The translations under genes were made by a program, and so were the position numbers. The notes beneath the pieces were generated by a model. That model did not search any database. It was not told where the DNA came from and was given only the letters and a program-made list of their open reading frames with translations. Shown piece after piece: positions 18,065 to 33,399 of a DNA stretch of 64,000 nucleotides. Source of the stretch: Gemmatimonadota bacterium (GTDB taxonomy: Bacteria > JAAXHH01). The stretch lies in assembly GCA_026702745.1 (NCBI GenBank), contig JAPPBT010000058.1:72408-136407 (forward strand), written 5' to 3'. Position 1 is the stretch's first letter, and each line of letters starts with the position of its first letter.

Positions 18065-19291
18065 ATGATCCTCCCGGTTCACCTCTACCGATACGTGTTC
18101 AAGGCGCACGTCGGTCCCTTTCTGTTTTCCTTCGTGATCATCACGTTCATCCTCGTGATGGACATCATATTCCAGATCGCCGACCTCATCATCGGCAAGA
18201 ACCTCGACCTGTTCATCGTGCTCGAGGTGTTTTTCCTCAACCTGGCCTGGATTGTCGCCGTATCGATCCCCATGTCCGTGCTGGTCGCCAGCCTCATGGC
18301 ATTCGGCCGGCTTTCGGCCGACAACGAGGTTACCGCCCTCAAGGCTGGCGGCGTCAGTTTCTTCCAGATGGTCTCGCCGGTCCTGGTAGCGGGACTCCTC
18401 CTGGGGAGCGGCCACCTGTTCTTCATGGACGTCATTCTGCCCGAATCCAACTACCGGGCGCGCTCGCTCATGAACGACATCCACCGTGCGCGTCCCACGT
18501 TGCTTTTCACCGGGGGCATATTCATGAAGGACATACCGGGATACAGCATCCTGATCGACCGGGTCAATCCAAGAAACAACGAAATCTCCGGTATCACCAT
18601 CTACGAGACAGAGAACATGCGCTATCCGCGCCTCATGACGGCAAAGACCGGAGAATTCCACGTCAACGAGACGGGCAGCCGGCTCGATCTCATGCTGTAC
18701 GACGGAGAACTGCTTCAGCAGGACGAATCTTCGGGACGCTATCTAAAAGAGATCTTCGAGCGGCAGCGGTTCACGATCCGCACCGAGCCGGCCGGCGTCC
18801 AGCGGTCGGAGGCGGGAATCCGGAGCGACCGCGAGCTGAACATCGCGATGATGCGCGCCAGAATCGATGAATGGCAGACGGAGATCGACGCTGCACTGGC
18901 GATCATGGCACCCGGACCGGTTTCCCCGGAGGCGAAGGCGGATTCCCTCGAGGCAGCGAGGGACCGGGCGGAGCGGACGGTCTCGCTGAGGCAGCGGCAG
19001 AAGAACAGCTACATCGTGGAGATCCACAAGAAGTACGCCATTTCAGCGGCCTGTTTCGTCTTCGTGTTGATCGGCGCACCGCTGGGGGTTCGCATACGCC
19101 GCGGCAGCATCGGCGTCAGCGTGGGCGTCAGCCTGTGCTTCTTCCTGCTGTACTGGGCCTGCCTGCTCGGCGGTGAGGAATTGGCGGACCGCGACCTGAT
19201 CGACCCCGTCTGGGCGATGTGGGCGGCAAACATCGTCATCGGCGTTCCCGGCGCCGTCCTGGTCTGGGTCACCGGCAGGGACCGCATCTGA
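18065..19291 (+). CDS. lptF: LPS export ABC transporter permease LptF (YjgP/YjgQ family)
   Basis: Polytopic membrane protein with a periplasmic beta-jellyroll insert, paired with a paralog downstream. Confidence 0.75.
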   Translation: MILPVHLYRYVFKAHVGPFLFSFVIITFILVMDIIFQIADLIIGKNLDLFIVLEVFFLNLAWIVAVSIPMSVLVASLMAFGRLSADNEVTALKAGGVSFFQMVSPVLVAGLLLGSGHLFFMDVILPESNYRARSLMNDIHRARPTLLFTGGIFMKDIPGYSILIDRVNPRNNEISGITIYETENMRYPRLMTAKTGEFHVNETGSRLDLMLYDGELLQQDESSGRYLKEIFERQRFTIRTEPAGVQRSEAGIRSDRELNIAMMRARIDEWQTEIDAALAIMAPGPVSPEAKADSLEAARDRAERTVSLRQRQKNSYIVEIHKKYAISAACFVFVLIGAPLGVRIRRGSIGVSVGVSLCFFLLYWACLLGGEELADRDLIDPVWAMWAANIVIGVPGAVLVWVTGRDRI

Positions 19292-19355
19292 CGGTCAGCT
19301 TGGACTCGTTTTATCCGCTTCGATTCGTTCGATACCACCGGAGGAACGCCGTTTC

Positions 19356-20438
19356 ATGTCCCTGATCACCCGGTACGTGCTACGCTTGTTCATCACCGCT
19401 ATCGCCGTCAGCCTGATCGCCTTCGTCAGCATCTTCTTCGTGGTCGATCTCATTGAGCAGCTGGACCGGTTCCTGGACCGTGATGTGGCCCCGGTATACA
19501 TCGCGCTCTACTACGTCTACTACACGCCCTATATCTTCGTACTCACGATTCCCGTCAGCCTGCTGCTCGCCAGCCTGTATACCTTCGGCCAACTGACCAG
19601 GCTGGGCGAACTGACCGCCATGAAGGCATCGGGGCTCAGTGTGTACCGGTTGCTGAGGCCCCTGCTCCTGGTCAGCGCGGTGGCAAGCGGTGGCCTGTTC
19701 TGGGCCGGTGAATGGCTCGTTCCCCATACGAGCATGAAACGGGCGGAAATCCAGTCGGAGCACGTGGACCTGCGGGGCGGCGTGGGGCAGCACATACGAA
19801 ACGACGTGTATTTCAGGGGAGAGGGAGGGCGCCAGTTCTATATCCGCGTATTCGACGGTCTCGACGCGGAGGGCACGGGGGTTTTCGTCACCGAATTCCA
19901 GGACAGCCTCGTCTCCAGCGTGCTCGAGGCGGAAAGCGCCGTCTGGCAGGACGGGCGCTGGCTGCTTTCAAACGGGGTGGAACGACGGTTCCAGGCGGGA
20001 GGCGGACTGTCCGAATACAATACCTTCGTCGAACGGGAACCGGACGGATGGTCCGTAACGCCGGAGGATTTCATGCGGGGGCAGAAACGTCCCGAGGAGA
20101 TGAGCTACGGAGAACTCGACCAGTTTATTCAGAATGTCCGGCGCGGAGGCGGAGACGTGCAGGGCTACCTGGTAGACCTCAACCTGAAGATCGCCTTCCC
20201 CAGCGCGGGCCTGATTATCGTGCTTCTGGGCGGCGCGCTGGCCACTCACCTGAGACGGGGCGGTGTCGCGGTGGGATTTGCCCTGAGTATCGGTATCTGT
20301 TTCATCTACTGGGGGCTGCTCCGCTTTACCCAGGCCTTCGGACACGCCGGATTGCTTGACCCCATGTCGGCGGCCTGGGGCGCCAACGCGCTCTTCGGCC
20401 TCCTGGCCCTGGTACTGCTGGTCAGAGCGCCCAAATAA
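19356..20438 (+). CDS. lptG: LPS export ABC transporter permease LptG (YjgP/YjgQ family)
   Basis: Paralog of the upstream gene, same architecture. Confidence 0.75.
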   Translation: MSLITRYVLRLFITAIAVSLIAFVSIFFVVDLIEQLDRFLDRDVAPVYIALYYVYYTPYIFVLTIPVSLLLASLYTFGQLTRLGELTAMKASGLSVYRLLRPLLLVSAVASGGLFWAGEWLVPHTSMKRAEIQSEHVDLRGGVGQHIRNDVYFRGEGGRQFYIRVFDGLDAEGTGVFVTEFQDSLVSSVLEAESAVWQDGRWLLSNGVERRFQAGGGLSEYNTFVEREPDGWSVTPEDFMRGQKRPEEMSYGELDQFIQNVRRGGGDVQGYLVDLNLKIAFPSAGLIIVLLGGALATHLRRGGVAVGFALSIGICFIYWGLLRFTQAFGHAGLLDPMSAAWGANALFGLLALVLLVRAPK

Positions 20439-20575
20439 GACTCGCGTCGCGTAGCAACGCCCTGGTCGGAGCGCCCAAATAAGACTCGCGTCGCGTAGCA
20501 ACGCCCTGGTCGGAGCGCCCAAATAAGACTCGCGTCGCGTAGCAACGCCCTGGTCGGAGCGCCCAAATAAGACTC
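20425..20575. repeat. 44-bp tandem repeat x3.4 (gagcgcccaaataagactcgcgtcgcgtagcaacgccctggtcg) beginning inside the last codons of lptG
   Basis: Period of 44 bp measured from copy starts at 20425, 20469, 20513 and 20557; the first copy supplies the lptG stop codon. Confidence 0.9.
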
Positions 20576-20582
20576 TGGCGAC

Positions 20583-21725
20583 TCAGGCGTGGTTCCTGAG
20601 TTCCTCCGCCTTGTCGCAGTTCTCCCAGGTAAATCCCGCCTCGTTGCGGCCAAAGTGACCGTACGACGCCGTGGGGCGGTAGATCGGCCGGCGCAGGTCG
20701 AGGCTTTCGATGATGCCCTGGGGCGTCAGGTCGAAGTGCTTGCGGATCAGACGCGTGATCTCCAGGTCATCGGCCGCGCCGGTACCGAAGGAATTGACGT
20801 TGACGGAAACCGGTTCCGCTACGCCAATGACGTAGGCCAGCTGGATCTCGCATTTCTCGGCCAGTCCGGCCGCGACGACGTTCTTGGCCACGTAACGGGC
20901 CGCGTAGGAAGCTGAGCGGTCCACCTTGGTCGGGTCTTTGCCCGAATAGGCCCCGCCCCCGTGGCGGCAGTAACCGCCGTAGGTGTCCACGATGATCTTC
21001 CGGCCCGTCAGGCCGGCGTCTCCCTGGGGGCCGCCGGTGACGAACCGACCTGTCGCGTTGACATGGTACTTGATCCGGCCCGGGTCGATCAACGCTTCCG
21101 GCAACGCGGGGGCAATCACTTCGTTGACGATGTCCTCCCTGATCCGCTCGTTGGAGACGTCCGGGTCGTGCTGGGCGGCGATGACCACCGTGTCGATCCG
21201 GCGGGGCTGGCCATCGACGTATTCCACCGTGACCTGCGATTTGCCGTCGGGACGCAGGTACGGGGCCGCGCCATTCTTCCGGATCGCCGCGAGGTTCCGG
21301 GTCAGCCGGTGGGCGAGGGTGATGGGCAGGGGCATCATCTCGGGGGTCTCGTTGGTCGCGTAGCCGAACATCATGCCCTGGTCGCCCGCGCCCTGCCGGT
21401 CCACCCCCATGGCGATGTCGGCCGACTGCTGGTCGAGGGATACGACCACGCCGCAGGACTCCCAGTCCAGCCCGAACCCGGAATCCGTATACCCGATGGA
21501 TTTGACGGTCTCGCGGGCCACGCTTTGCGCGTCCACGTGGCCGTCCGTCGTGATCTCCCCGCCAACGACCACCAGGCCCGTGGTGACGAAGGTTTCACAG
21601 GCCACGCGGGCGTAGGGATCCTGTTCGATGACGGCGTCAAGCACCGCGTCGGAGATCTGGTCGGCGACCTTGTCGGGATGGCCTTCGGTAACGGATTCGG
21701 AAGTGAAGAGGTAACCAGGTGTCAT
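20583..21725 (-). CDS. metK: S-adenosylmethionine synthetase
   Basis: [21 protein letters not shown] and GGGAFSGKD motifs. Confidence 0.9.
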
Positions 21726-21790
21726 GCGTCATGCTCCTGATGATCGACCCGTGGATCGGGAACGATCGGTTTCGTGGTTTCGGTAATCAG

Positions 21791-22840
21791 TCAGACGAAA
21801 ACTTCGCAGTTTGTGCCTTCCGGACTGTGTGGGCCGTCGGGGCCGCCCAGACCTCCCAGGTCGACCGGGCCGCCCAGGTTGCCCAGGCCGATCGGAACAC
21901 GCCTTACCGTGTCGGCCAGGACGGCGTGGGGGGTAACGATGGCACCCCGGAGGTCGCAGTTCTCAATACGGGCGTGGGATCCGATGGTGGCGTCGCGGAC
22001 GACGGAACGCGCGACGGAAGCCCGGGACGAGATGGCGACGTGGGGGCCGATGACCGACCGGTGGACCCGGGCGTCGTCCGCGATGTCTACCGGTGGAATG
22101 ATCACGCTGCCGGGAATGTCGCAACGCCCTCCGTTCAGGTCGAGCAGCCGCCTGTTGGCCTCCAGCAGACGCTCCGGCGTGCCGCAATCGTACAAGTCGT
22201 CGACTTCAAAGGGGACCAGGTGTTCGCCCTGTTCCACCATCCATTGCAGCGCGTCCGTCAGCTGATACTCGTTCCGGGTCCTTCGGCCGGAACGTACCAG
22301 GGTTTCCAGTCCTTCCATGAGCGGCCGGGGATTGGAGAAACCGTAGATCCCGGCGATCGCGAGATTCGAAACGGGGTGGTCGGGTTTCTCCACCAGCCGG
22401 GTGATCCGCCTGTCCTCGACCTCGACCAGTCCGTACCGGCTAAGGTCACCGGCGACCCGCTTGACGCCGATGGCGTTACCGGGCGGTTCGTCGGCGAGGA
22501 AAGCAAAATCAGACAGATAGATGACGTCACCCAGCAGGACCAGGAGCGGCTCGTCATCCACGAGGTCCGCGCACAGGTGCACGGCGTGTCCGATCCCGAG
22601 CGGCTCTTGTTGCAAGACGTACCGGGCTTCGAGGTCATCCCGCCGGTCGACGTACCGGCGGATGGCGTCACCCGACGGCGAGATTACCAACACAACGTCG
22701 CGGATGCCCATGGCGGTTACCTGGTCGAGCAGGTATTCCAGCACCGGCTTGCCGGCGACGGGGACCAAGGCCTTGGGAGTCTCAAGCGTGACGGGGTGCA
22801 ATCGGCTGCCGCTGCCGGCGACGGGAATGATGGCTTTCAT
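21791..22840 (-). CDS. Sugar-1-phosphate nucleotidyltransferase with a C-terminal left-handed beta-helix domain
   Basis: MKAIIPVAGSGSRLHP... NTP-transferase N-terminus; hexapeptide-like C-terminus; degenerate GLGxLGGP repeats at the extreme C-terminus. Confidence 0.75.
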   Translation of the reverse strand: MKAIIPVAGSGSRLHPVTLETPKALVPVAGKPVLEYLLDQVTAMGIRDVVLVISPSGDAIRRYVDRRDDLEARYVLQQEPLGIGHAVHLCADLVDDEPLLVLLGDVIYLSDFAFLADEPPGNAIGVKRVAGDLSRYGLVEVEDRRITRLVEKPDHPVSNLAIAGIYGFSNPRPLMEGLETLVRSGRRTRNEYQLTDALQWMVEQGEHLVPFEVDDLYDCGTPERLLEANRRLLDLNGGRCDIPGSVIIPPVDIADDARVHRSVIGPHVAISSRASVARSVVRDATIGSHARIENCDLRGAIVTPHAVLADTVRRVPIGLGNLGGPVDLGGLGGPDGPHSPEGTNCEVFV

Positions 22841-23043
22841 GGAGATTCCTTGCGCGTGCGCACCCTCTCCCGGCGGAACGCGCCGGGACCGAAAAGAACG
22901 GTTCAGTAAGTAACAACGGACCAGGGCCGCGCGCAACAGAAATCATCGTCGCCGGAAGCTGCCAACCACGGTCTACTCGCCGGCGGATCCCCGTCTTCGC
23001 GGCTGCGGGATCCGGTCTCTTCGGCTGCATGCTGTCCCGGGAT

Positions 23044-23782: not shown

Positions 23783-24670
23783 CTAGCCTGCCCGGTTACC
23801 CTGGCCCGTTCTGCCCGCCCGGTCCGCCCGGCCGAAGAAATAGGCCAGGTTGCCCAACAGGACCAGCAGTACGATCAGCACGTGGGTCACGACCTGGGGA
23901 CCCATGCGCATGGTGGCCTCCATGGTGGCGTTCCGGTAGGCCGGATACCGGTCCACCAGGGCGGACTCGTACTCGGAAGCCCCTTTGAGGCCGCCCATCA
24001 GGCCGACCAGTTGCTGGGGATAATAGGGATAGAGTTCCGGCGCCACCACGGCCGTGCCGCCTCCCATGACGGGAATCCCCGCGATGTCGCCCGCGAACTG
24101 GATCCACTCCTTCAGTCCCGGGTCCCCTGCGGTCAGGCTCAGGATGATGACGTAGTCCACCATCTCGTCCACGTCCGCGGTTATGGGAAGGTCGTCGAGG
24201 GGCGTGCCCTCCGCGTCGGCGTTGACCAGGGTCCTGAAGTTGACCACCATGGTGTTGATCGCGCCGCCCAGGCCGGCCTTGTACCCCAGGTTCACGAAGT
24301 CCCGGCCGTACGCCTTGTCCGGAAACTCCTCGGGCAGCAGGTTGTCCGTAATCTTCTTGATCTGTCCCACCCCCTCGGGGAACAGGGTGAAGAAGGACAC
24401 CTCGTGGCCGCGGATCATCGTATGCCGCACGAGGGCCTTCGCCATGGGATCCAGCTCGGGAGCGGTGTCCGGACCGTAGTCGAAGGAAAGGAACACCCGC
24501 GACCCGGCCGGAAGTCGTTCCACGGTGTCGAAGATCGACTGGACGATAGGCGTGGGGCTGTCCTGGAAACGGGGTTTCAGGAGCAGTGGAATGCAGACCG
24601 CCGCCCCGATGAGAAGGAAGATGATCCGGCGGTCGATCTGCAGGATGAAATCGGGAATCCGCATGCTCAC
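23783..24670 (-). CDS. Membrane-anchored protein (N- and C-terminal TM helices flanking a ~200-aa non-cytoplasmic domain), unknown family
   Basis: ATGA overlap with the upstream gene. Confidence 0.5.
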   Translation of the reverse strand: MSMRIPDFILQIDRRIIFLLIGAAVCIPLLLKPRFQDSPTPIVQSIFDTVERLPAGSRVFLSFDYGPDTAPELDPMAKALVRHTMIRGHEVSFFTLFPEGVGQIKKITDNLLPEEFPDKAYGRDFVNLGYKAGLGGAINTMVVNFRTLVNADAEGTPLDDLPITADVDEMVDYVIILSLTAGDPGLKEWIQFAGDIAGIPVMGGGTAVVAPELYPYYPQQLVGLMGGLKGASEYESALVDRYPAYRNATMEATMRMGPQVVTHVLIVLLVLLGNLAYFFGRADRAGRTGQGNRAG

Positions 24671-25352: not shown

Positions 25353-26330
25353 CTACCTGAAGAGCCAGAGCACGATTTCGGAGACTTCGCGGACGGTTTC
25401 ACTTCCGGTAATGGATTCCAGGGTGGCCAGCGCGCTGCCGGCCAGGATGAATACGATGGCGATGCCCTTGCCGGCGTCCTGTCCCTTCAGGCTGCCCAGC
25501 ATGCGTGGTTCCTTGGACAGGTACGCGCTGGCAGCGAACAGTTCCTCTCCGATCAGCGTATAGTCGCAGGCCGCCACGAAGAAGGGCAACTGGGGAGGCC
25601 TGGCCGTCCCCGCGATCTGTATGGCGCCGATGGAGTTGCCCGTTTCCGCCAGGATAAGCGATTCGGCGTAGAACCCGCCCAGGTAGAAGCAGGCGGCCGG
25701 CTTTTCCCGCACGATGATGCCGTCTACGGCCGCCGCGTAGGCGAACTGCGCATCGGAGACGTAGTGTATGTCGTCTTCCTGGTAGGCGTCGGGGCGGCCC
25801 GCGGTCAGGTAGGATTGCTGCACGGTTTCCCGGGCCACGCTCATGACGAGGGACTTGCGCACGGGCACGTGCAATCTGGAATCGTAGCCCGCGATGATGG
25901 TGGCGAGATGACCCAGCAGGTTCATGGACGCGATGGTCTGCACCTCGTCCATGTCGTTCAGGCCGGGGACGTAGAGGATGGGCTTGCCCATCTCCGTCGC
26001 CCGTCCCACGGCTTCCTCCACCGTCTCCAGGCCGGCGATCTTGCGTATGAAAAGCGGCCGGCCCGCGGAGGCCAGCACCACGTAAAGCAGGATAGCGCCC
26101 GTCAGGACGATCCCCAGGACCAGGGCCTGGGTCCGGTCCGCGTTGAACCAGCCGGATTCGGTGCCGGCCTGGGCCAGTACGGGATCCGGCTGCAGCACGG
26201 AGAAGATTGCCGTGAGGGCGAGGATCGCCCGCGACAAGGAGAAGTCCGCCGCGAAGGCAAGGACCGCCTGCGACAGGCCGGTCGCGGTGGTTAAGTTCTG
26301 CGGTATGCGGGTCGTTGGGCGGAAATGCAT
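25353..26330 (-). CDS. Membrane protein (N-terminal TM pair, soluble middle domain, C-terminal TM), unknown family
   Basis: Start ATG overlaps the upstream TGA (TGATG). Confidence 0.5.
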   Translation of the reverse strand: MHFRPTTRIPQNLTTATGLSQAVLAFAADFSLSRAILALTAIFSVLQPDPVLAQAGTESGWFNADRTQALVLGIVLTGAILLYVVLASAGRPLFIRKIAGLETVEEAVGRATEMGKPILYVPGLNDMDEVQTIASMNLLGHLATIIAGYDSRLHVPVRKSLVMSVARETVQQSYLTAGRPDAYQEDDIHYVSDAQFAYAAAVDGIIVREKPAACFYLGGFYAESLILAETGNSIGAIQIAGTARPPQLPFFVAACDYTLIGEELFAASAYLSKEPRMLGSLKGQDAGKGIAIVFILAGSALATLESITGSETVREVSEIVLWLFR

Positions 26331-27469
26331 CAGGTCTCCACGATCTCCACGTTCGCCCGGGGCACCGTCACGAGCGCTCCGTTCGTCCGGCGCGCTTCCA
26401 GCACCCGTGCGAAGGCGCCCGTGGGAAGCCGCACGGGCTGTTCGGGCAGCGACGCCACCGTAGCGAGTTCACCGAACCAGGGTTCGCGGATCAGGCGTAC
26501 GAGCGAACCGGCTTCAAGGCCGCGGCCGGCCGGGGCCGCCCGATCCGAGGAGGCCTGATCAGCAGACGCCTCGTCGCCGTCGGACCTGATGATGATCTCG
26601 GGACGGATCACACCGGCCCGGATCTGCGTGGCGCCGCTCAGGGAAGCTTCGCGGTCCTGCATGGAACGGAGCAGTTCGAAGGTGCGTTCTGCCATGGGCA
26701 GCCATCCGAAGCCTTCGGTGACGATCATGGTCAGTCCGATGTCTTCCCCGCCAGTCACCGCGACGCCGATCTGGTATCCCAGGAGGTCGCCGATATCGTG
26801 GTAACGCATGCCGCCCACGACAACGCCGGACGCGCCAACCTCTATCAACTTACGCAACGCGTCAAGGGTGATCATGGATCCGCAGCATACGATCCGGCCC
26901 CGCAGACGGTCATCGATCATTTTGCCGGTGACCTCTTCCTCGGGCGATTGGACGATCTGGCTTATGGGCGCGTGCGTTTCGCCCCCCACGCCGAAGATCC
27001 CCTGAATGCAGGCGCCGGCCGTTTCCACCACGACGCCCTCCCCCGGCAGTGTTTCGGTGACCGTGCCGTCGAGGTAGGCGTTGATCCGCACCGGGGTCGA
27101 CGGTTCCCGGATGAGCACCTGGCCGGTCACTTCCGAGACCATTTCGATGGTGCCGCTTTCGGGACCCCGGACGCTGGATTTGAACAATCCGAAGATCCCC
27201 TTCGATTCGGCGATCAGTTCGCCTTTCGCCACCGGTTCGTCCCGCTGCTTGAGCATGCAGCCCGGCACTTCTTCCGGTGCGATGGCCAGGGCATTGGCCA
27301 CATTGACGTTGTGCACCGGTCCGGGCAGGTAGGTCTCGGCGACTACCGTGTCAGGCCGTACCCGGTCGCCGACCTCCACCAGCACCTGGCCGCTCAGCGG
27401 AAGGCGACGCGTCCTGGCGACGACGGTCCGGGGCGATACGCGCAGGCCTGATGTATAGGCGTGGGCCAT
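26330..27469 (-). CDS. Soluble protein whose N-terminus resembles the NqrA/RnfC barrel-sandwich hybrid domain; unknown function
   Basis: LPLSGQVLVEVGDRVRPDTVV...KGELIAESKGIF...SGTIEMVSEVTGQVL pattern; start ATG overlaps the upstream TGA (TGATG). Confidence 0.55.
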   Translation of the reverse strand: MAHAYTSGLRVSPRTVVARTRRLPLSGQVLVEVGDRVRPDTVVAETYLPGPVHNVNVANALAIAPEEVPGCMLKQRDEPVAKGELIAESKGIFGLFKSSVRGPESGTIEMVSEVTGQVLIREPSTPVRINAYLDGTVTETLPGEGVVVETAGACIQGIFGVGGETHAPISQIVQSPEEEVTGKMIDDRLRGRIVCCGSMITLDALRKLIEVGASGVVVGGMRYHDIGDLLGYQIGVAVTGGEDIGLTMIVTEGFGWLPMAERTFELLRSMQDREASLSGATQIRAGVIRPEIIIRSDGDEASADQASSDRAAPAGRGLEAGSLVRLIREPWFGELATVASLPEQPVRLPTGAFARVLEARRTNGALVTVPRANVEIVET

Positions 27470-29271
27470 CAGTCTGGCTCCGGATAGAGGTCGAGTGCGC
27501 GGCAATCCCTTTGCAGCCTTTCCACCCGTTCGGCCGCGTCCGCCGGCCAATGAAGCGGTCTGCCGCGGGTGTCGACGATCACGCCCAGGGGACCGTTCCG
27601 CACGGTACGGGCGACCGTCACGCCCCGTCCGGCGCCGGCGTCGAAACTACGGACGGGCACGACCTCCAGGGCGACCTCCTCCGCCTCCCCGGCCGGAATC
27701 GCGGCCAGTTCGCCCACGGCCGCCTCGTGCGTCCATTCCCCGTCGTCCGTCCTCGCCCTGACGGTCGCGCACGGGGTGCCGCGCGCTCCGGTACCCACGG
27801 GCGCCACGCACGGACCGAGATGGACAAGGCAATCCCGGTCGAAAACCTCCAGTGCCGCGGTTTCATGCACGGTCGACAGCACGCCCAGGTGGGGCATCAT
27901 GAAGATGCTGTCCACCGCCAGGTTCGTGATGCCCTCGGGCTGGAAGGCGTCCACCATCATCAGCGCGGCCTGCGCCCGGCTCGGTGCGTGGGAGAGCACG
28001 CCCCCGCTGCCGATGACCAGGTCCAGGTTCATCAGATCGACCAGGGTCCGGCCGCCCGTCTGCTGGTCGAAGGTGTCCGATATGGTTCGAAGCTGTTGCA
28101 CGCCCTTCAACTCGACGGCGAAGTTCCGGTGCTGCTCGAAGGCCAGCCGCAGGGCCTCGCGGGCCACGGCCTGCTCGATGATCAGCTCCTCCAGGGTCTG
28201 GGGGATGCTGGTGGGCCGGATCATCTTGTTGCCCATGCGGTCTTTCAGGTCGGCGTCGGTCATTTCAAAGGGCAGCCACCGGGCGATGTTATCCAGCCCC
28301 GCCTCCGTCAGCACGTTGGAAATACTGTAGCTCATGCCGAGATTGGCGCTGACGGTCCGGTTGAACGCGCCGCCGAAGACCGAAAACACGTCGGTGGTCG
28401 CACCGCCGATATCCACACCCAGCACGTCGATGCCACTTCGTTCCGCGACGACCCGAACCATCCGTCCCACGGCGCCGGGTGTAGGCATGATCGGCACGTG
28501 GGTCCACGCCATCAGGTCGCTGTACCCGGGCGCCTGGGCCATCACGTGTTCCATGAACAGGGTGTGGATCTGTTCCCGGGCGGGGCCCAGGTTCTCCGCT
28601 TCGAGCACGGGCCGCAGGTTATCCACCCGGCTGAGTTCCGTCCGTTCGGCCAGAATTCGTCCGACGTCTTCGCGGGCGTCGGCGTTCCCGGCGTAGATGA
28701 CCGGCAGATCGTAGCCGCTGCCCAGCCGGGGTCTCGGGTCCGCCGCGGCGATCAGTTCGGCCATCTCGACCACGTGGGACTTCGTGCCGCCGTCCACGCC
28801 GCCGGACAGCAGGATCATGTCCGGCCGGAGCTGACGTATGCGTTCGATGCGCTCGTGGGGCAGGCGCCCGTCGTTTGACGCCAGGGTTTCCATGACGATG
28901 GCGCCCGCGCCCAGGGCCGCCCGTTCGGCACTCTCGGCGGTCATGCTCTTGACCACGCCGGCCACCATCATCTGGAGCCCTCCGCCGGCGCTGCTCGTCG
29001 AGACGTAGAGGTCCACCCCGCGGTCACCCTCGGCGGGCGACACGATCCGTTCTCCGTCGAGGATCTCGCGGCCGGACTGCTCCTCCACCTCGCGCACCGC
29101 GTTGAGGACGCCCCGCGTGACGTCCTCGAAGGGCGCTTCCACGGTCGTTGGCGCCTCACCGCGAACGACGAGACGGTAGGCGTCGGCGCGTCGCTTGATC
29201 AGGATGGCCTTGGTGGTGGTGCTGCCGCAGTCCGTGGCCAGGATGACGCTGGTTTCTGGTGGAAGGGACAT
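27469..29271 (-). CDS. GlmL/MutL-like ASKHA-superfamily ATPase (actin/Hsp70 fold) with a C-terminal ~130-aa extension
   Basis: Phosphate-1 ILATDCGSTTTKAIL, phosphate-2 VLGVDIGGATTDVFSV and adenosine VIGSGGVLSH motifs; 600 aa. Confidence 0.7.
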   Translation of the reverse strand: MSLPPETSVILATDCGSTTTKAILIKRRADAYRLVVRGEAPTTVEAPFEDVTRGVLNAVREVEEQSGREILDGERIVSPAEGDRGVDLYVSTSSAGGGLQMMVAGVVKSMTAESAERAALGAGAIVMETLASNDGRLPHERIERIRQLRPDMILLSGGVDGGTKSHVVEMAELIAAADPRPRLGSGYDLPVIYAGNADAREDVGRILAERTELSRVDNLRPVLEAENLGPAREQIHTLFMEHVMAQAPGYSDLMAWTHVPIMPTPGAVGRMVRVVAERSGIDVLGVDIGGATTDVFSVFGGAFNRTVSANLGMSYSISNVLTEAGLDNIARWLPFEMTDADLKDRMGNKMIRPTSIPQTLEELIIEQAVAREALRLAFEQHRNFAVELKGVQQLRTISDTFDQQTGGRTLVDLMNLDLVIGSGGVLSHAPSRAQAALMMVDAFQPEGITNLAVDSIFMMPHLGVLSTVHETAALEVFDRDCLVHLGPCVAPVGTGARGTPCATVRARTDDGEWTHEAAVGELAAIPAGEAEEVALEVVPVRSFDAGAGRGVTVARTVRNGPLGVIVDTRGRPLHWPADAAERVERLQRDCRALDLYPEPD

Positions 29272-29275
29272 GGAG

Positions 29276-29665
29276 TCAGTTTACCGTGTCATCCGCCCCG
29301 GAGGCGTGATGCTCAATGCGCTGGATCAGGAACTCCACGTTCTCCCGGCGCTCGATGGCCTCGGCGATCCGGTCGTAGTCCGACGCGTCCACCACCATGT
29401 GAATGAAGGGGCTCAGGAAAGCCATGAACTGGCCGCCCAGAAACGAGAGGGGTTTCATGGATTCCAGGAAGAGGACCGCGGGCGCGGTGAGCTCGCGCGC
29501 GGCTATGGCCTCGGCGATCCGGTCAAGCAGGGCCTGCTGTTCCGCCACGGTCTCTGATGAATCACTCATGCCGGTCCGCCTGGTGCACTTGATCGGCCTG
29601 GTCGTCCTGGTCGGCCTGGTCGGCCTGGTCGGTCCGACCGGTCCTCTAACAGGCTGTCGGAGCAT
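29276..29665 (-). CDS. Small soluble protein of unknown function; N-terminal (PTR)n region may be coding (alternative start at ATG 29569)
   Basis: ORF starts 9 nt after the PhyH stop; conserved-looking core MSDSSETVAEQQALLDRIAEAIA... Confidence 0.4.
   Translation of the reverse strand: MLRQPVRGPVGPTRPTRPTRTTRPIKCTRRTGMSDSSETVAEQQALLDRIAEAIAARELTAPAVLFLESMKPLSFLGGQFMAFLSPFIHMVVDASDYDRIAEAIERRENVEFLIQRIEHHASGADDTVN
29595..29639 (-). repeat. 9-bp tandem repeat (ggcctggtc x5) in the 5' region of the small ORF, encoding (PTR)n if translated
   Basis: Direct repeats in the DNA. Confidence 0.8.
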
Positions 29666-29674
29666 CTCACGGCC

Positions 29675-30526
29675 TCAGCTAATTACAGATTCCGGACCCG
29701 CGTGTCGGCCGATCCATTCCCGCAAGGGTATGTCTTCGGGCAGGGGCGAGGTATAGCCATGACCGCCCGAAGGTCCTGCGCCCAGGAGCTGCCTGCGGAT
29801 GGGGTCGCTGCGGTCCATGTAGTGATCCACGGTCATGTTGTCCCGGGGACGCAGCCAGCGGTAACTGTAGCCGTAGAACAACACCTTGCGGGTGATATCG
29901 GAGTAGTTGATCCCGGATGCGTGCCAGAGACGGCGATCGAAAAACACGGCGTCGCCGGCCGCCGCCCGTATGGGAATGGCACCTTCCGGATCCTGATCGG
30001 CCTCATCTGGAAACTCAATCGCTTCGAGACGGTGGCTGCCCGGAATGGCGTGGAAGTTGCCCCGGTCGGTCGCCGTGCAGTCGCTCAGGAAGAAGGCCAC
30101 TTTCAGCGACACCCGCGGTCGGGGCGTGGTCTCCAGATCGATATTGAGCCTGCCGCTGTCCTGATGCCAGCCCAGACGCCGCTTTTTGGGCTTCTGATCC
30201 GCCGGCGACGGCGGCGACACGATCAAATGTGAATGGTACAGCTGGATGTGCCAGCCGAGAATGCCCCAGACCTTGGGGAAGGTCTTCGGCCAGTCGAGCA
30301 GTTCCAGCAGCAGATCGTCCTGTCCGATGATGTCGAAATGATTCTTGATACTGTAGGGGCTGCCTCCCATGTTGGGACGGCGTTCAACATCGATGCGTTC
30401 CGCGATCCGGTCCAGCGCTTCCACCATATCGCCAGGCAGCACGTTCTCCACGATGAAAAAACCCTGTTCATCGAAGAGGCGCCGCTCTTCGTCCGTCAGG
30501 CAGTAGGCAAGACAGGAAGGGTCCAA
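29675..30526 (-). CDS. Phytanoyl-CoA dioxygenase (PhyH) family Fe(II)/2-oxoglutarate oxygenase; first gene of the operon
   Basis: PhyH-like HxD...H pattern (WHQDSG ... HAIPGSH), 283 aa. Confidence 0.7.
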   Translation of the reverse strand: MDPSCLAYCLTDEERRLFDEQGFFIVENVLPGDMVEALDRIAERIDVERRPNMGGSPYSIKNHFDIIGQDDLLLELLDWPKTFPKVWGILGWHIQLYHSHLIVSPPSPADQKPKKRRLGWHQDSGRLNIDLETTPRPRVSLKVAFFLSDCTATDRGNFHAIPGSHRLEAIEFPDEADQDPEGAIPIRAAAGDAVFFDRRLWHASGINYSDITRKVLFYGYSYRWLRPRDNMTVDHYMDRSDPIRRQLLGAGPSGGHGYTSPLPEDIPLREWIGRHAGPESVIS

Positions 30527-30650: not shown

Positions 30651-32285
30651 TCACGATTCCCGAACCACGAATTTCGCCCTGATCTCCGGACTTTCCCCGT
30701 ATCCAATCCGGATCGCCCGCGCCTTTATCTGATACTCGCCGGCATCAAGGCGCAGCGGTCCGGTATACAACAACCAGTGGGGGTCATCTCCCGTCTGAAG
30801 CGTGTAAGCGATGGATGCGCCTTGCGTGGCGCAGTGAAGCTGCAGCAGTATCGGCCCTTCATACGAGCCGCCCTCCAGGGCCGGCTCGATCCCGGGACTG
30901 TCAGCGCATATGGGCACGCAGACCACGGGGGCGGTCTCGGGCTGACGGCCCTCCGGATACCAGTTCCGGACCATCTCGCTTTCAGGGACCCGGCCCATGT
31001 CCCCGGTCTCTTCGAGCCAGGCGTCGAGCGCCGTTCGCATCCGCTCCAGGTCGGTACGGATCCGGGGATCGTCGGCCAGGTTGCGTACTTCATGGGGATC
31101 GGCCGCCGTGTCGTAAAACTCCTCGACGGGCCTTGGGTACCGGAACAGGGCCGACTGCGCCTCGTCAAGGCCGCCCTCCAGGCGCAGCCGCCAGATTTCC
31201 TGCATGATCGGATGGCGGTTTCGATAGGGGATCCAGGAAAGGTAAGGCAGGTCCGGCCGGTAATTGCGAATGTACTTGTACCGACCGTCCCGAACGGCCC
31301 GTACCATGTCGTAGGATACGTCGTGGCGGTCCCGGCTGGCGAAGACGAACTCGCGCGGCGGTCGAGCCTGTCTCCCGAGAAAGGCGCGGCCCTGGATATG
31401 GTGCGGGATTTCGACGCTGGCCAGGGAAAGCATCGTGGGTCCCAGGTCGATCGTGCTGACCAGGTCTTCGCATACCCGCCCGCCTTCCAGGTCCGGCCCC
31501 CTCGCGATGAGCGGAACATGAATACCCGCGTCATAGGGCCAGCGCTTGCCCCGGGGCAAGGGACCATGGTCGCTCCAGTTGAAGACGTACGTATTCCCGG
31601 CAAGGCCATCTTCGTCCAGCTGGTCCAGGAGCGTGCCGAATTCCCGGTCGTTGTGGGCTATATGGGTGTACATGCGGGCAAGGGCCTCCCGCACCACCGG
31701 CGTGTCGGGCAGGTGGGGCGGCGGCTCGATGGCATTGGGATCGAACGCTGGCGAAGGACACTTTTCCGGCCACATCCCGCTCTCGTGGCTGCGCATGAGG
31801 TTGAAGACCGCGAAGAAAGGTTGTTCCGGATCGGGCCGGTTGCGCCAGTGGGCATCCTTTCCCAGGTCGTCCCACGCCGTCAGCGGCGGTTCGAACTGGT
31901 AGTCGGTTTTGAAGTTGTTCGTACAGTAGTATCCCGCCGCCCGCAGGTATTCGGTGAAGCACTTGACGAAGTGGGGCGGAACCGCGGAATAGGGCGTGGG
32001 TAACTCAGGTACAGCGGGATCGGCGTGGGTGGTCCGCATGTGGTGCGTGCCGATGGAGGTGGCGTACATCCCGGTAATGATCGCGGAGCGGGCCGGTGCG
32101 CACACGCCGGACGTGGAGAAACAGTTCGTCCACCGGCATCCCTGCGCAGCGAAGCGGTCCACGTTCGGTGTGCGGGCCACCGGGTCGCCGTAGCAACCGT
32201 AATAGGGGCCGGTGTCCTCGAAGGAGATCCACAGGATGTTTGGTCTGGACGGGGAATGCAAGCGCACTCTCTTCTTTTCGGTCAT
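30651..32285 (-). CDS. Sulfatase (formylglycine-dependent type) lacking an obvious signal peptide, with a C-terminal extra domain
   Basis: CAPARSAIITGMY sulfatase signature; 544 aa. Confidence 0.8.
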   Translation of the reverse strand: MTEKKRVRLHSPSRPNILWISFEDTGPYYGCYGDPVARTPNVDRFAAQGCRWTNCFSTSGVCAPARSAIITGMYATSIGTHHMRTTHADPAVPELPTPYSAVPPHFVKCFTEYLRAAGYYCTNNFKTDYQFEPPLTAWDDLGKDAHWRNRPDPEQPFFAVFNLMRSHESGMWPEKCPSPAFDPNAIEPPPHLPDTPVVREALARMYTHIAHNDREFGTLLDQLDEDGLAGNTYVFNWSDHGPLPRGKRWPYDAGIHVPLIARGPDLEGGRVCEDLVSTIDLGPTMLSLASVEIPHHIQGRAFLGRQARPPREFVFASRDRHDVSYDMVRAVRDGRYKYIRNYRPDLPYLSWIPYRNRHPIMQEIWRLRLEGGLDEAQSALFRYPRPVEEFYDTAADPHEVRNLADDPRIRTDLERMRTALDAWLEETGDMGRVPESEMVRNWYPEGRQPETAPVVCVPICADSPGIEPALEGGSYEGPILLQLHCATQGASIAYTLQTGDDPHWLLYTGPLRLDAGEYQIKARAIRIGYGESPEIRAKFVVRES

Positions 32286-32295
32286 TTCGATACTA

Positions 32296-33399
32296 TCACA
32301 AACCCGCGATCGTCTCCCCGGCGAGCTGGTCGACGACCGCTTTCAGATCACCGGTTTCATCATAGGTCTTGAGCTGCCGGTCCGCGCTGCTGCCCTGCTC
32401 GAGCATGACCCGGATGTACTCGATCTCCTCCCGGACGCCGAGAGGGTCCACCACGTCGTCCACGATTTCCAGCAATTCCTCGATGAGATATCGCAGGGGT
32501 ACTTCCTCTTCCTTGCCGAAGTCGACCAGTTTCCCGTCCAGCCCGTCCTTGATGGCGCGCCACTTGTTCTCGGCCACCAGGTCGCGCCGGTAGTACCGCC
32601 AGGACTGGTTCTCACGGCGCAGCCGGATCAACTTGGCCGCCACCGCCCTGACCAGGGCCACGATGGCCACCACTTCGTCGATTTTGGTGATGCAGTCGCA
32701 GATCCGGAGCTCCAGCGTGGGAAAACGGGGATGGGGACGCACATCCCACCAGATCTTCGTGGGCTCGTCCATGCAGCCGGTCTTGATCATCGTCTGGATG
32801 AAATGGTCGTACTCGACGGCCGAGTCGAACCGATCGGGTATACCGGTCCGGGGCAACTCGGAGAACACGATGCTCCTGTAGGATTTAAGCCCCGTGTTGT
32901 CTCCCATCCAGAAGGGGGATGAAGACGAAAGGGCCAGGACGTGGGGCAGGAAATAGCCGATCTGGTTCATGGTGTCGATGCGCAATTCCCGGTCGGGTAT
33001 GCCGACGTGAATGTGCATGCCGAAGATAAGCAGGCGGCGGGCGACGTACTGCAGGTCGGCAACCAGGCTGCGGTACCGGTCTTTCTCGGTGATTTCCTGC
33101 TCCTGCCAGCGGGAAAAGGGATGGGTGCCGGCCGCCACGATCCGGTGGCCGCTCTTTTCGGCGATTTCGGACACCATGCTCCGAAGCCGGGCGATCTCCT
33201 TGCGGACTTCCTTGATGTCCTTGCAGACCTCGGTACCCATTTCCACCTGGGACTGAAGGAATTCCGGCTTGACCTGGTCGCGAAAAACCCGCTTCCCCTT
33301 TTCGAGAAACTCGGAGATGTAGGAAGTCAGTTCCCGCGACTCGGGGTCGATGATCTGGTATTCCTCTTCGACGCCAAGCGTCATTTCTTCTAAGGTCAT
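32296..33399 (-). CDS. Carboxylate-amine ligase, glutamate-cysteine ligase family 2 (YbdK-like)
   Basis: N-terminal TLGVEEEYQIID and overall GCS2-like sequence; 367 aa. Confidence 0.75.
   Translation of the reverse strand: MTLEEMTLGVEEEYQIIDPESRELTSYISEFLEKGKRVFRDQVKPEFLQSQVEMGTEVCKDIKEVRKEIARLRSMVSEIAEKSGHRIVAAGTHPFSRWQEQEITEKDRYRSLVADLQYVARRLLIFGMHIHVGIPDRELRIDTMNQIGYFLPHVLALSSSSPFWMGDNTGLKSYRSIVFSELPRTGIPDRFDSAVEYDHFIQTMIKTGCMDEPTKIWWDVRPHPRFPTLELRICDCITKIDEVVAIVALVRAVAAKLIRLRRENQSWRYYRRDLVAENKWRAIKDGLDGKLVDFGKEEEVPLRYLIEELLEIVDDVVDPLGVREEIEYIRVMLEQGSSADRQLKTYDETGDLKAVVDQLAGETIAGL

Follow-up and report, generated by a model that had tools for sequence, protein, structure and literature searches.

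A BSH- and KOW-domain protein genetically tied to a MutL/GlmL-family ATPase and a four-protein membrane module in a Gemmatimonadota bacterium

RnfC and NqrA carry an N-terminal barrel-sandwich hybrid (BSH) domain with a VxVGDxV ... SGTI/V pattern, each being a soluble subunit encoded beside several membrane proteins. The known primary membrane machines of prokaryotes draw their energy from ABC, P-type, rotary or AAA+-type ATPases or from redox chemistry. Here, we describe a gene, T, in a 64,000-nucleotide stretch of a Gemmatimonadota bacterium genome (contig JAPPBT010000058.1; the whole stretch is called the window), whose 379-residue product shares this N-terminal architecture and had been likened to RnfC and NqrA in a first-pass annotation. 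The finding is real, and the Rnf/Nqr framing is only superficially right. Unlike RnfC and NqrA, T has no NADH/FMN, SLBB or iron-sulfur domain and no Rnf/Nqr partner genes, and it has a different middle domain and a C-terminal KOW domain. T is a soluble subunit of a conserved, uncharacterised membrane-associated system made up of a soluble module, S-M-T, and a membrane module, D-a-P-b, where S, M, D, a, P and b are the companion genes in the window. Loci from other genomes are labelled L and homologous proteins P, each with a number.

The seven genes lie head to tail on the minus strand in the order S, M, T, D, a, P, b. Single-nucleotide overlaps of T with the genes on either side had been reported, and both are TGATG stop/start junctions, one between M and T at 27469 (cagacTGATGgcc) and one between T and D at 26330 (gacctGATGcat). 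Homologues all open with MAHAYTPGL, which supports the ATG at 27469 as the start of T. The open reading frame (ORF) is as first annotated and contains the motifs ascribed to it: VEVGDRV at residues 31–37, SGTI at 104–107, a CC pair at 194–195 and the glycine-rich stretches GVGGE, VVVGG and VTGGE. Hydropathy reveals no transmembrane or hydrophobic segment in T. The calls made for its neighbours also hold, in that the upstream gene encodes an ASKHA ATPase (Pfam MutL), the downstream gene encodes a membrane protein (DUF6754) and none of the neighbouring proteins matches an Rnf/Nqr family in Pfam or NCBIfam.

T belongs to a large and well-conserved family. A first homologue search returned at least 7999 homologues at E ≤ 0.001, the full-length matches being 374–377 residues long with identities from 96% down to about 50% (46–96% overall). 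An exhaustive profile search gave 3576 clusters at the 50% identity level, of which 1143 had E ≤ 1e-30, and a pattern scan of one genome per species found T in at least 584 species. The closest named relative among the matches listed is from a Gemmatimonadetes metagenome-assembled genome. Across an alignment of 36 diverse members the mean column identity is 66%, with more than 70 invariant positions that include the start (AYTPGL) and the end (PRANVExxE) of the protein. The number of homologues and this level of identity across phyla show that T is not a chance ORF, and invariant positions extending to both termini fit a hub with several interfaces. The CC pair, which the first-pass annotation had singled out, is present in the window copy (around 26885–26890) but peculiar to it, as C195 replaces the glycine of a GGS motif kept in at least 90% of homologues.

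Gene order was compared in about 80 loci of other genomes, searched with the seven window proteins; these are the best-scoring of the at least 584 loci and may give a biased picture of the whole. Among the best 80 there are about 25 lineage labels, including two archaeal ones, and T occurs under labels that include Zixibacteria, Eisenbacteria, Poribacteria, WOR-3, Latescibacteria, Nitrospirae, Armatimonadota, Dormibacterota, Bacillota, Synergistia, Planctomycetota, Bathyarchaeota and Culexarchaeia. As many loci take their label from a metagenome bin, some of the taxonomic assignments may be mistaken. In 47 of the 71 loci whose flank is long enough, M is found upstream of T on the same strand at a distance of no more than 3 kb, and in 36 of no more than 150 nucleotides; of the 44 loci with long flanking sequence on each side, 20 contain D. 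The order S-M-T-D-a-P-b is found again under the labels Zixibacteria, Eisenbacteria, Latescibacteria, Nitrospirae, Armatimonadota, Dormibacterota, Bacillota, Synergistia, Lentisphaeria, Fidelibacterota and Bathyarchaeota, with identities to the window proteins across phyla of 57–68% for M, 46–52% for T, 44–65% for D and 28–55% for a, P and b. T is genetically tied to M, sometimes covalently: two proteins of 995 and 1003 residues (P0140 and P0220) are M-T fusions with the Pfam MutL domain N-terminal and T C-terminal.

The soluble M-T pair is in turn linked to a membrane module of four proteins, which can occur in several copies. D-a-P-b stands ahead of S-M-T in L049, L076 and L077, is locally absent in L032, L059 and L052, and occurs as two or three tandem paralogous modules after a single S-M-T in L012, L046 and L063, a pattern reminiscent of one energising module serving several membrane modules. 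Bacillota loci have the order D-a-P-b-M′-T′-S-M-T, with a second, paralogous pair (L051 4251–7509, L079 4273–7498, L068 3370–6622, L044 4496–7837) in which M′ is about 54% identical to M and T′, of about 450–470 residues, is about 36–39% identical to T; the T′-type paralogues P0170 and P0232 hold two BSH domains. The position of the M′T′ pair between D-a-P-b and S-M-T suggests hetero-oligomeric M/M′ and T/T′ assemblies. One Bathyarchaeota-labelled locus has two M-T pairs and two D-a-P(-b) modules, the second of which reaches the end of the locus before b.

M extends about 120 residues C-terminally past its Pfam MutL domain, and its phosphate-1 (DCGSTTTK) and phosphate-2 (DIGGATTD) motifs are intact. 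It scores under the cut-off of each NCBIfam GlmL model (238.8 against 475 for accessory_GlmL, 225.8 against 600 for Or-4 and 184.5 against 204 for TIGR01319), and PDB searches found no solved relative by sequence. S stands directly upstream of M in most loci. Its longest ORF reaches 29665, and the stretch 29570–29665 opens with a PTRPTRPTRTTRP-like repeat that homologues do not keep; because tblastn conservation begins near residue 32 of this long ORF, the true start is probably the Met codon at 29569. S matches no Pfam or NCBIfam family at a meaningful level, and hydropathy gives no transmembrane segment in S or M.

An AlphaFold2 model of T, built on the 36-member alignment, has a mean predicted local distance difference test score (pLDDT) of 86 and a predicted template modelling score (pTM) of 0.70, and divides the protein into four parts (Table 1). 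The first contains the BSH domain, interrupted in the model by a short (15-residue) helical insert at residues 57–71. Among the 36 homologues, Pfam matches at E ≤ 0.01 were to RnfC_N in 29, Biotin_lipoyl in 19 and NQRA_N in 12. The window protein itself scores 18.4 bits against RnfC_N, under the cut-off of 25.6, which a few homologues pass (P0108 with 28.5 bits, P0232 with 37 bits); NQRA_N reaches at best 19.8 bits among the matches shown, against a cut-off of 25, and neither the Rossmann-like domain nor the C-terminal domain that follow in NqrA, nor any other NqrA domain, was found. Because Biotin_lipoyl matches equally well, the likeness to RnfC_N is that of the general BSH fold, which is common to biotinyl/lipoyl domains, phosphotransferase system (PTS) EIIA and M23 peptidases. 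The N-terminal resemblance to RnfC and NqrA had therefore been rightly seen, with RnfC_N the commonest match, but it is not specific to Rnf/Nqr. T shares the fold with biotinyl/lipoyl carriers, and several homologues exceed the Biotin_lipoyl cut-off; since the hairpin lysine, K90, found in most homologues, is replaced by R in P0043 and P0079, S in P0109, G in P0115 and A in P0117, the T BSH domain cannot be a universal biotin or lipoate carrier.

Beyond this hairpin the comparison with RnfC and NqrA breaks down. An hhalign comparison of the T family with E. coli RsxC residues 1–450 aligned 38 columns (T 72–113 with RsxC 57–94) at 5% probability. Pfam found no NADH/FMN (Complex1_51K), SLBB or Fer4 domain in the 36 homologues, the two 4Fe-4S ferredoxin-type cysteine motifs expected of RnfC are not in T, and none of its cysteines (71, 153, 194 and 195) occupies an invariant or near-invariant column. 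No match to the partner genes rnfA/B/D/E/G or nqrB–F was found among the seven neighbouring proteins in Pfam or NCBIfam. Foldseek matched T weakly to the NqrA chains 8acy_A, at E 5e-3 with a template modelling (TM) score of 0.12 and a root-mean-square deviation of 21 Å, and 8a1y_A, at E 0.047, and the BSH domain gave similarly weak matches to BesA and the SBHM domains of RNA polymerase. On the features tested, we thus reject membership of T in the RnfC and NqrA families.

The middle domain of T is built from an antiparallel beta layer followed by a parallel beta/alpha layer and contains the invariant motifs QGIFGxGGE, GVAxTGxE, TEGFG and GATQIRAGVIRPE. Modelled alone it reached a pLDDT of 88.5 and a pTM of 0.84, and in a fold search no PDB structure matched it at E < 1e-3; no Pfam family was found for it in 20 homologues. 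Its weak top structural matches are 1r61, the TRiC apical domain, the PA domain of TfR/PSMA and PTS enzyme I, all of which, together with RraA, have the swivelling beta/beta/alpha fold in the SCOP classification; the modelled domain may possibly have this fold as well. The C-terminal part matches the KOW domains of Spt5 and NusG in Foldseek with a probability of 1.00 and local TM scores up to 0.81, Pfam KOW is over its cut-off in the paralogue P0232, and UniRef names T homologues as KOW domain-containing proteins. The remainder of T after the BSH domain had been described as lacking an obvious family. This stands insofar as no Pfam or NCBIfam family covers T beyond BSH and KOW, but it overlooked the KOW domain. 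T resembles NusG/Spt5 and the ribosomal KOW proteins in this C-terminal barrel of about 60 residues, whereas it has no NGN domain (no Pfam match) and the system contains no transcription or translation genes. The full-length model matched the PDB only through KOW and weakly through BSH-containing structures, with no global match, and PDB sequence and profile searches found no significant relative. T was thus not placed with confidence in any unrelated, characterised enzyme family.

Several other identities for T, or for parts of it, were considered and set aside. A membrane fusion protein of the HlyD/AcrA type does not agree with the lack of a hydrophobic N-terminus, with the fusion of T to a cytoplasmic ATPase in P0140 and P0220, or with a helical insert of only 15 residues in place of an alpha-hairpin; the match to BesA is weak (E about 1e-2, TM 0.12). 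By eye, TEGFG...M resembles the TExGGxTSH motif of phosphoenolpyruvate-utilising phosphohistidine domains, but an invariant Met stands at the position of the His, and neither Pfam nor hhalign to E. coli enzyme I supported the likeness. Homology to RraA or EIIA received hhalign probabilities below 2%. A role of the N-terminal peptide as phospho-acceptor for M is at odds with the loss of H3 and T6 in the M-T fusions. A covalent flavin site at (S/N)GAT would sit poorly with the variable residue preceding it and the lack of a flavin-transferase gene among the conserved neighbours.

The four remaining proteins form the membrane part of the system; D, a, P and b have transmembrane segments, and T, M and S have none. 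Hydropathy of D indicates a signal-like segment, a transmembrane helix, a soluble domain of 200 residues at positions 88–288 and a C-terminal transmembrane helix. Many D homologues have an FN3 domain of about 100 residues ahead of the first transmembrane helix (for example, L049 3558–4871, L055 9732–11108 and L058 2616–4031), where the window D has only its short signal-like segment; the D profile matches titin FN3 at E 1e-17, and Pfam fn3 matches three D members. The FN3 domain places the N-terminus of D outside the cell and, by inference, the DUF6754 domain in the cytoplasm. The start of P overlaps the stop of a by 4 bases. A conserved DRR directly before the first helix of P suggests that its N-terminus faces inward and its large domain the extracytoplasmic side. 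An internal duplication of the membrane module, with a resembling b and D resembling P, was examined and rejected, as hhalign showed no homology. Searches of the PDB gave no relative of a, P or b, and none for D that is significant save the FN3 domains of its homologues; a, P and b match no Pfam or NCBIfam family at a meaningful level. Overall, five of the seven system proteins fall in no Pfam family, and all seven lack a solved relative.

Table 1. Positions of the seven-gene system, the parts of T and the flanking genes in the window
Feature	Position	Strand	Basis or description
S, soluble or peripheral protein, ~97 aa	29279..29569	minus	tblastn; start = internal Met
M, 600-aa MutL/GlmL-family ASKHA ATPase	27469..29271	minus	Pfam MutL E 2.7e-130, residues 10-481
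T, 379 aa	26330..27469	minus	ORF; stop codon 26330-26332; BSH, middle domain, linker and KOW
T residues 8-121, invariant N-terminal strand AYTPGL and BSH domain	27107..27448	minus	Pfam matches in homologues, model strand pattern
T residues 122-300, middle domain	26570..27106	minus	antiparallel beta layer, then parallel beta/alpha layer
T residues 301-320, variable acidic linker	26510..26569	minus	pLDDT < 50 at 304-315; alignment columns gapped, variable
T residues 321-379, KOW / SH3-like barrel ending in invariant PRANVExxE	26333..26509	minus	Foldseek, Pfam
D, 325-aa DUF6754 protein	25353..26330	minus	Pfam DUF6754 E 1.4e-118
a, polytopic membrane protein of 226 aa with 5 or more transmembrane helices	24667..25347	minus	hydropathy; conserved after D
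P, 295 aa, transmembrane helix at each end, 226-aa domain between	23783..24670	minus	hydropathy, alignment
b, polytopic membrane protein, 224 aa, at least 3 helices	23044..23718	minus	hydropathy; last gene of module
PhyH gene, directly upstream of S	29675..30526	minus	Pfam E 5.7e-22
lptF and lptG	18065..20438		window flank (18065-22936)
metK	20583..21725		window flank (18065-22936)
sugar-nucleotidyltransferase	21791..22936		window flank (18065-22936)
sulfatase	30651..32285		window flank (30651-33399)
GCS2-type carboxylate-amine ligase	32296..33399		window flank (30651-33399)

The genes that flank the cluster in the window are ordinary ones. PADLOC found no match and so no known defence system, Rfam found no riboswitch in the window or in four other loci, and in the literature searched we found nothing on the system and no mention of DUF6754 or PF13941. 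Other genomes have additional neighbours. An eighth conserved gene, U, not in the window, lies directly upstream of S in 17 loci (for example, L012 6948–7403, L027 7382–7840 and L037 7268–7750) and encodes a protein of about 150 residues with two hydrophobic helices, then a soluble domain with LSPFEKPSRLExFRG and no Pfam family. In 13 loci, again unlike the window, gcvT and two gcvP subunit genes are immediately upstream of the cluster on the same strand (L015 3082–7422, L037 2906–7310, L057 3087–7318 and L063 2921–5874, among others); these loci are labelled Eisenbacteria, Fermentibacteria, WOR-3 (one locus) or unclassified. An extra gene separates M and T in five Zixibacteria and Ignavibacteria loci: in L008 (9142–9978), L011 (2657–3454), L043 (6030–6836) and L072 (3094–3966) its product has about 265–290 residues, a signal peptide and a C-terminal membrane anchor, and the 230-residue product in L007 (2124–2816) looks different. 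The PhyH gene next to S in the window has a counterpart in a PhyH-like gene beside a lone T in nine Poribacteria loci (L006, L010, L018, L022, L023, L041, L050, L053 and L062). This adjacency could be a coincidence, as both host groups may hold many PhyH genes, or a weak functional link.

We speculate that T couples the M ATPase to a transporter-like membrane module, a reading to which we give slightly less than an even chance. In this mechanism, M would bind and hydrolyse ATP; T would bind M and hand on a nucleotide-dependent movement to D-a-P-b, with the cytoplasmic DUF6754 domain of D as its probable docking site and with its mobile-looking middle domain and its BSH and KOW domains as contact surfaces; and D-a-P-b would then act on something at or beyond the membrane. 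The layout resembles that of a transporter or an envelope-processing machine, with an actin-fold ATPase in the place of an ABC ATPase. The transporter-like reading is suggested by the combination of a soluble ATPase module, two unlike polytopic proteins, a domain that probably faces outward, the duplication of membrane modules and the presence of more than one paralogous set in a genome. What the data show is the linkage of the genes, the fusion of M to T, the domain composition and the predicted topology, and from these we infer physical contact, the direction of coupling and a transport output.

Several observations weigh against this mechanism. The data point to no substrate, and in Pfam, NCBIfam and PDB searches no component resembled a known transporter family. 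The invariant polar residues and glycine-rich loops of the T middle domain might just as well belong to an enzyme active site or bind a small ligand, and the swivelling-fold lead depends on a best match that is not significant (E 0.06, TM 0.39) and has no profile support. Moreover, Poribacteria, WOR-3, Stahlbacteria and one Planctomycetota locus have a T that stands alone among housekeeping genes, including accA, era, topA, gyrA and a TMEM260-like gene, and neither M nor D-a-P-b lies less than 10 kb away. The lone T keeps all invariant residues, which suggests that these lineages encode its partners elsewhere in the genome. Only a few bases behind the lone T of WOR-3 and Stahlbacteria comes a gene for a protein of about 280 residues that resembles an outer-membrane beta-barrel and matches no Pfam family (L020 7757–8587, L029 2171–3115, L047 11131–11964 and L067 8309–9190), and after it accA and era.

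The membership of M in the MutL/GlmL Pfam family and the existence of M-T fusions would also suit an ATP-dependent reactivating chaperone like GlmL, EutA or DdrA, in which T provides a swivelling domain in trans that pries open or repairs a client. The swivelling domain built into the alpha subunit of diol dehydratase reactivase belongs to the swivelling fold class, as do the weak structural matches of the T middle domain and RraA, found by profile search, and T is also found away from the membrane module. A possible client is the DUF6754 domain, or else an enzyme whose gene lies elsewhere. However, the conserved neighbours of M-T at the roughly 80 loci include no B12-dependent mutase and no other candidate client, M is under every NCBIfam GlmL cut-off, and the fold matches are all non-significant and do not include the dehydratase reactivase itself. 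Tight, repeated linkage to four membrane proteins would be unexpected of a reactivase for a soluble enzyme, and we regard this explanation as unlikely, if worth keeping in view.

Another question is whether T is itself an enzyme or small-ligand binder whose glycine-rich loops hold a phosphorylated metabolite, with a tie to amino-acid or glycine metabolism. The middle domain has four such loops and a set of invariant polar residues (Q156, E164, T239, E242, T251, E252, T281, Q282, R284, R289 and E291), phosphate-binding (beta/alpha) barrels match it weakly and locally (GGGP synthase, at E 0.035, HisA and ThiE), and the gcvT/gcvP genes stand directly upstream of the cluster in some loci. None of these matches is significant, however, linkage to gcv is seen in related FCB-group lineages only, there is no conserved Cys or His that could serve in catalysis (H3 is lost in the fusion proteins), and BSH and KOW are typical interaction modules. 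Catalysis or ligand binding as the function of T is, in our estimate, improbable.

M has an actin fold, is conserved between phyla to the degree seen in cytoskeletal proteins and has M/M′ paralogues, and the system might therefore be a cytoskeletal or positioning device in which M polymerises and T and S tether the filaments to D-a-P-b anchors. M is nearest to the hydantoinase/GlmL enzyme branch, which is not known to polymerise, and sequence data are silent on polymerisation; we consider filament formation very unlikely. Finally, the reading of the system as a divergent redox-driven ion pump, with T as a peripheral subunit of the NqrA/RnfC type and a, b, P and D replacing RnfA/E/G/D, draws on the RnfC_N, NQRA_N and weak NqrA matches, on a similar number of subunits and on polytopic proteins a and b of about the size of RnfA and RnfE, but is already largely refuted and scarcely tenable, since the alignment to RsxC is limited to the BSH hairpin, T has no redox domain or conserved cysteine, its conserved partner is an ATPase and not a flavoprotein or iron-sulfur protein, and a and b fall in no Rnf-Nqr family and, in contrast to RnfA and RnfE, are not homologues of one another.

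If T does couple M to the membrane module, an actin-fold ATPase together with four unfamiliar membrane proteins would constitute a new way of coupling ATP to the membrane, and the MutL/GlmL family, DUF6754 and several unannotated families would gain a first functional setting. We put forward tentatively, and with a little less confidence than the coupling role of T, that S-M-T and D-a-P-b represent a previously unrecognised class of ATP-driven membrane machine, energised by an actin-fold ATPase through the BSH-swivel-KOW protein T. The system, found in at least several hundred species under about 25 bacterial lineage labels and two archaeal ones, appears to be ancient or widely transferred. 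Conservation between bacterial phyla and archaeon-labelled loci (about 50% for T and about 60% for M), together with multiple copies per genome, points to an important, selectable function. Uncultured lineages, for example Zixibacteria, Eisenbacteria, Poribacteria, WOR-3 and sponge-associated Gemmatimonadota, make up most of its carriers, and the natural M-T fusions offer a direct route to biochemistry and structure. The novelty is in the system, which is large, modular and apparently undescribed, and not in the window copy, which is an ordinary member.

Among described systems, GlmL/MutL, EutA and DdrAB are related to this one through M, a member of the MutL/GlmL Pfam family, and the T middle domain may share the swivelling fold that DdrA holds internally, a lead that draws on weak matches and SCOP classes. 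M differs from GlmL in being 140 residues longer and in its scores under the NCBIfam cut-offs. No B12 enzyme is linked to it, glutamate mutase genes not being conserved nearby in our survey of neighbours at the roughly 80 loci, and the four linked membrane proteins have no counterpart in GlmL systems. ABC and energy-coupling factor (ECF) transport systems differ from S-M-T and D-a-P-b in that the ATPase here has an actin fold and not an ABC fold, and in showing no sequence similarity to the proteins described here. In architecture alone, the ABC and ECF systems and this one are alike in having a soluble ATPase module beside two unlike polytopic proteins and a membrane-anchored domain, here one that probably faces outward, and in membrane modules duplicated next to a single ATPase module.

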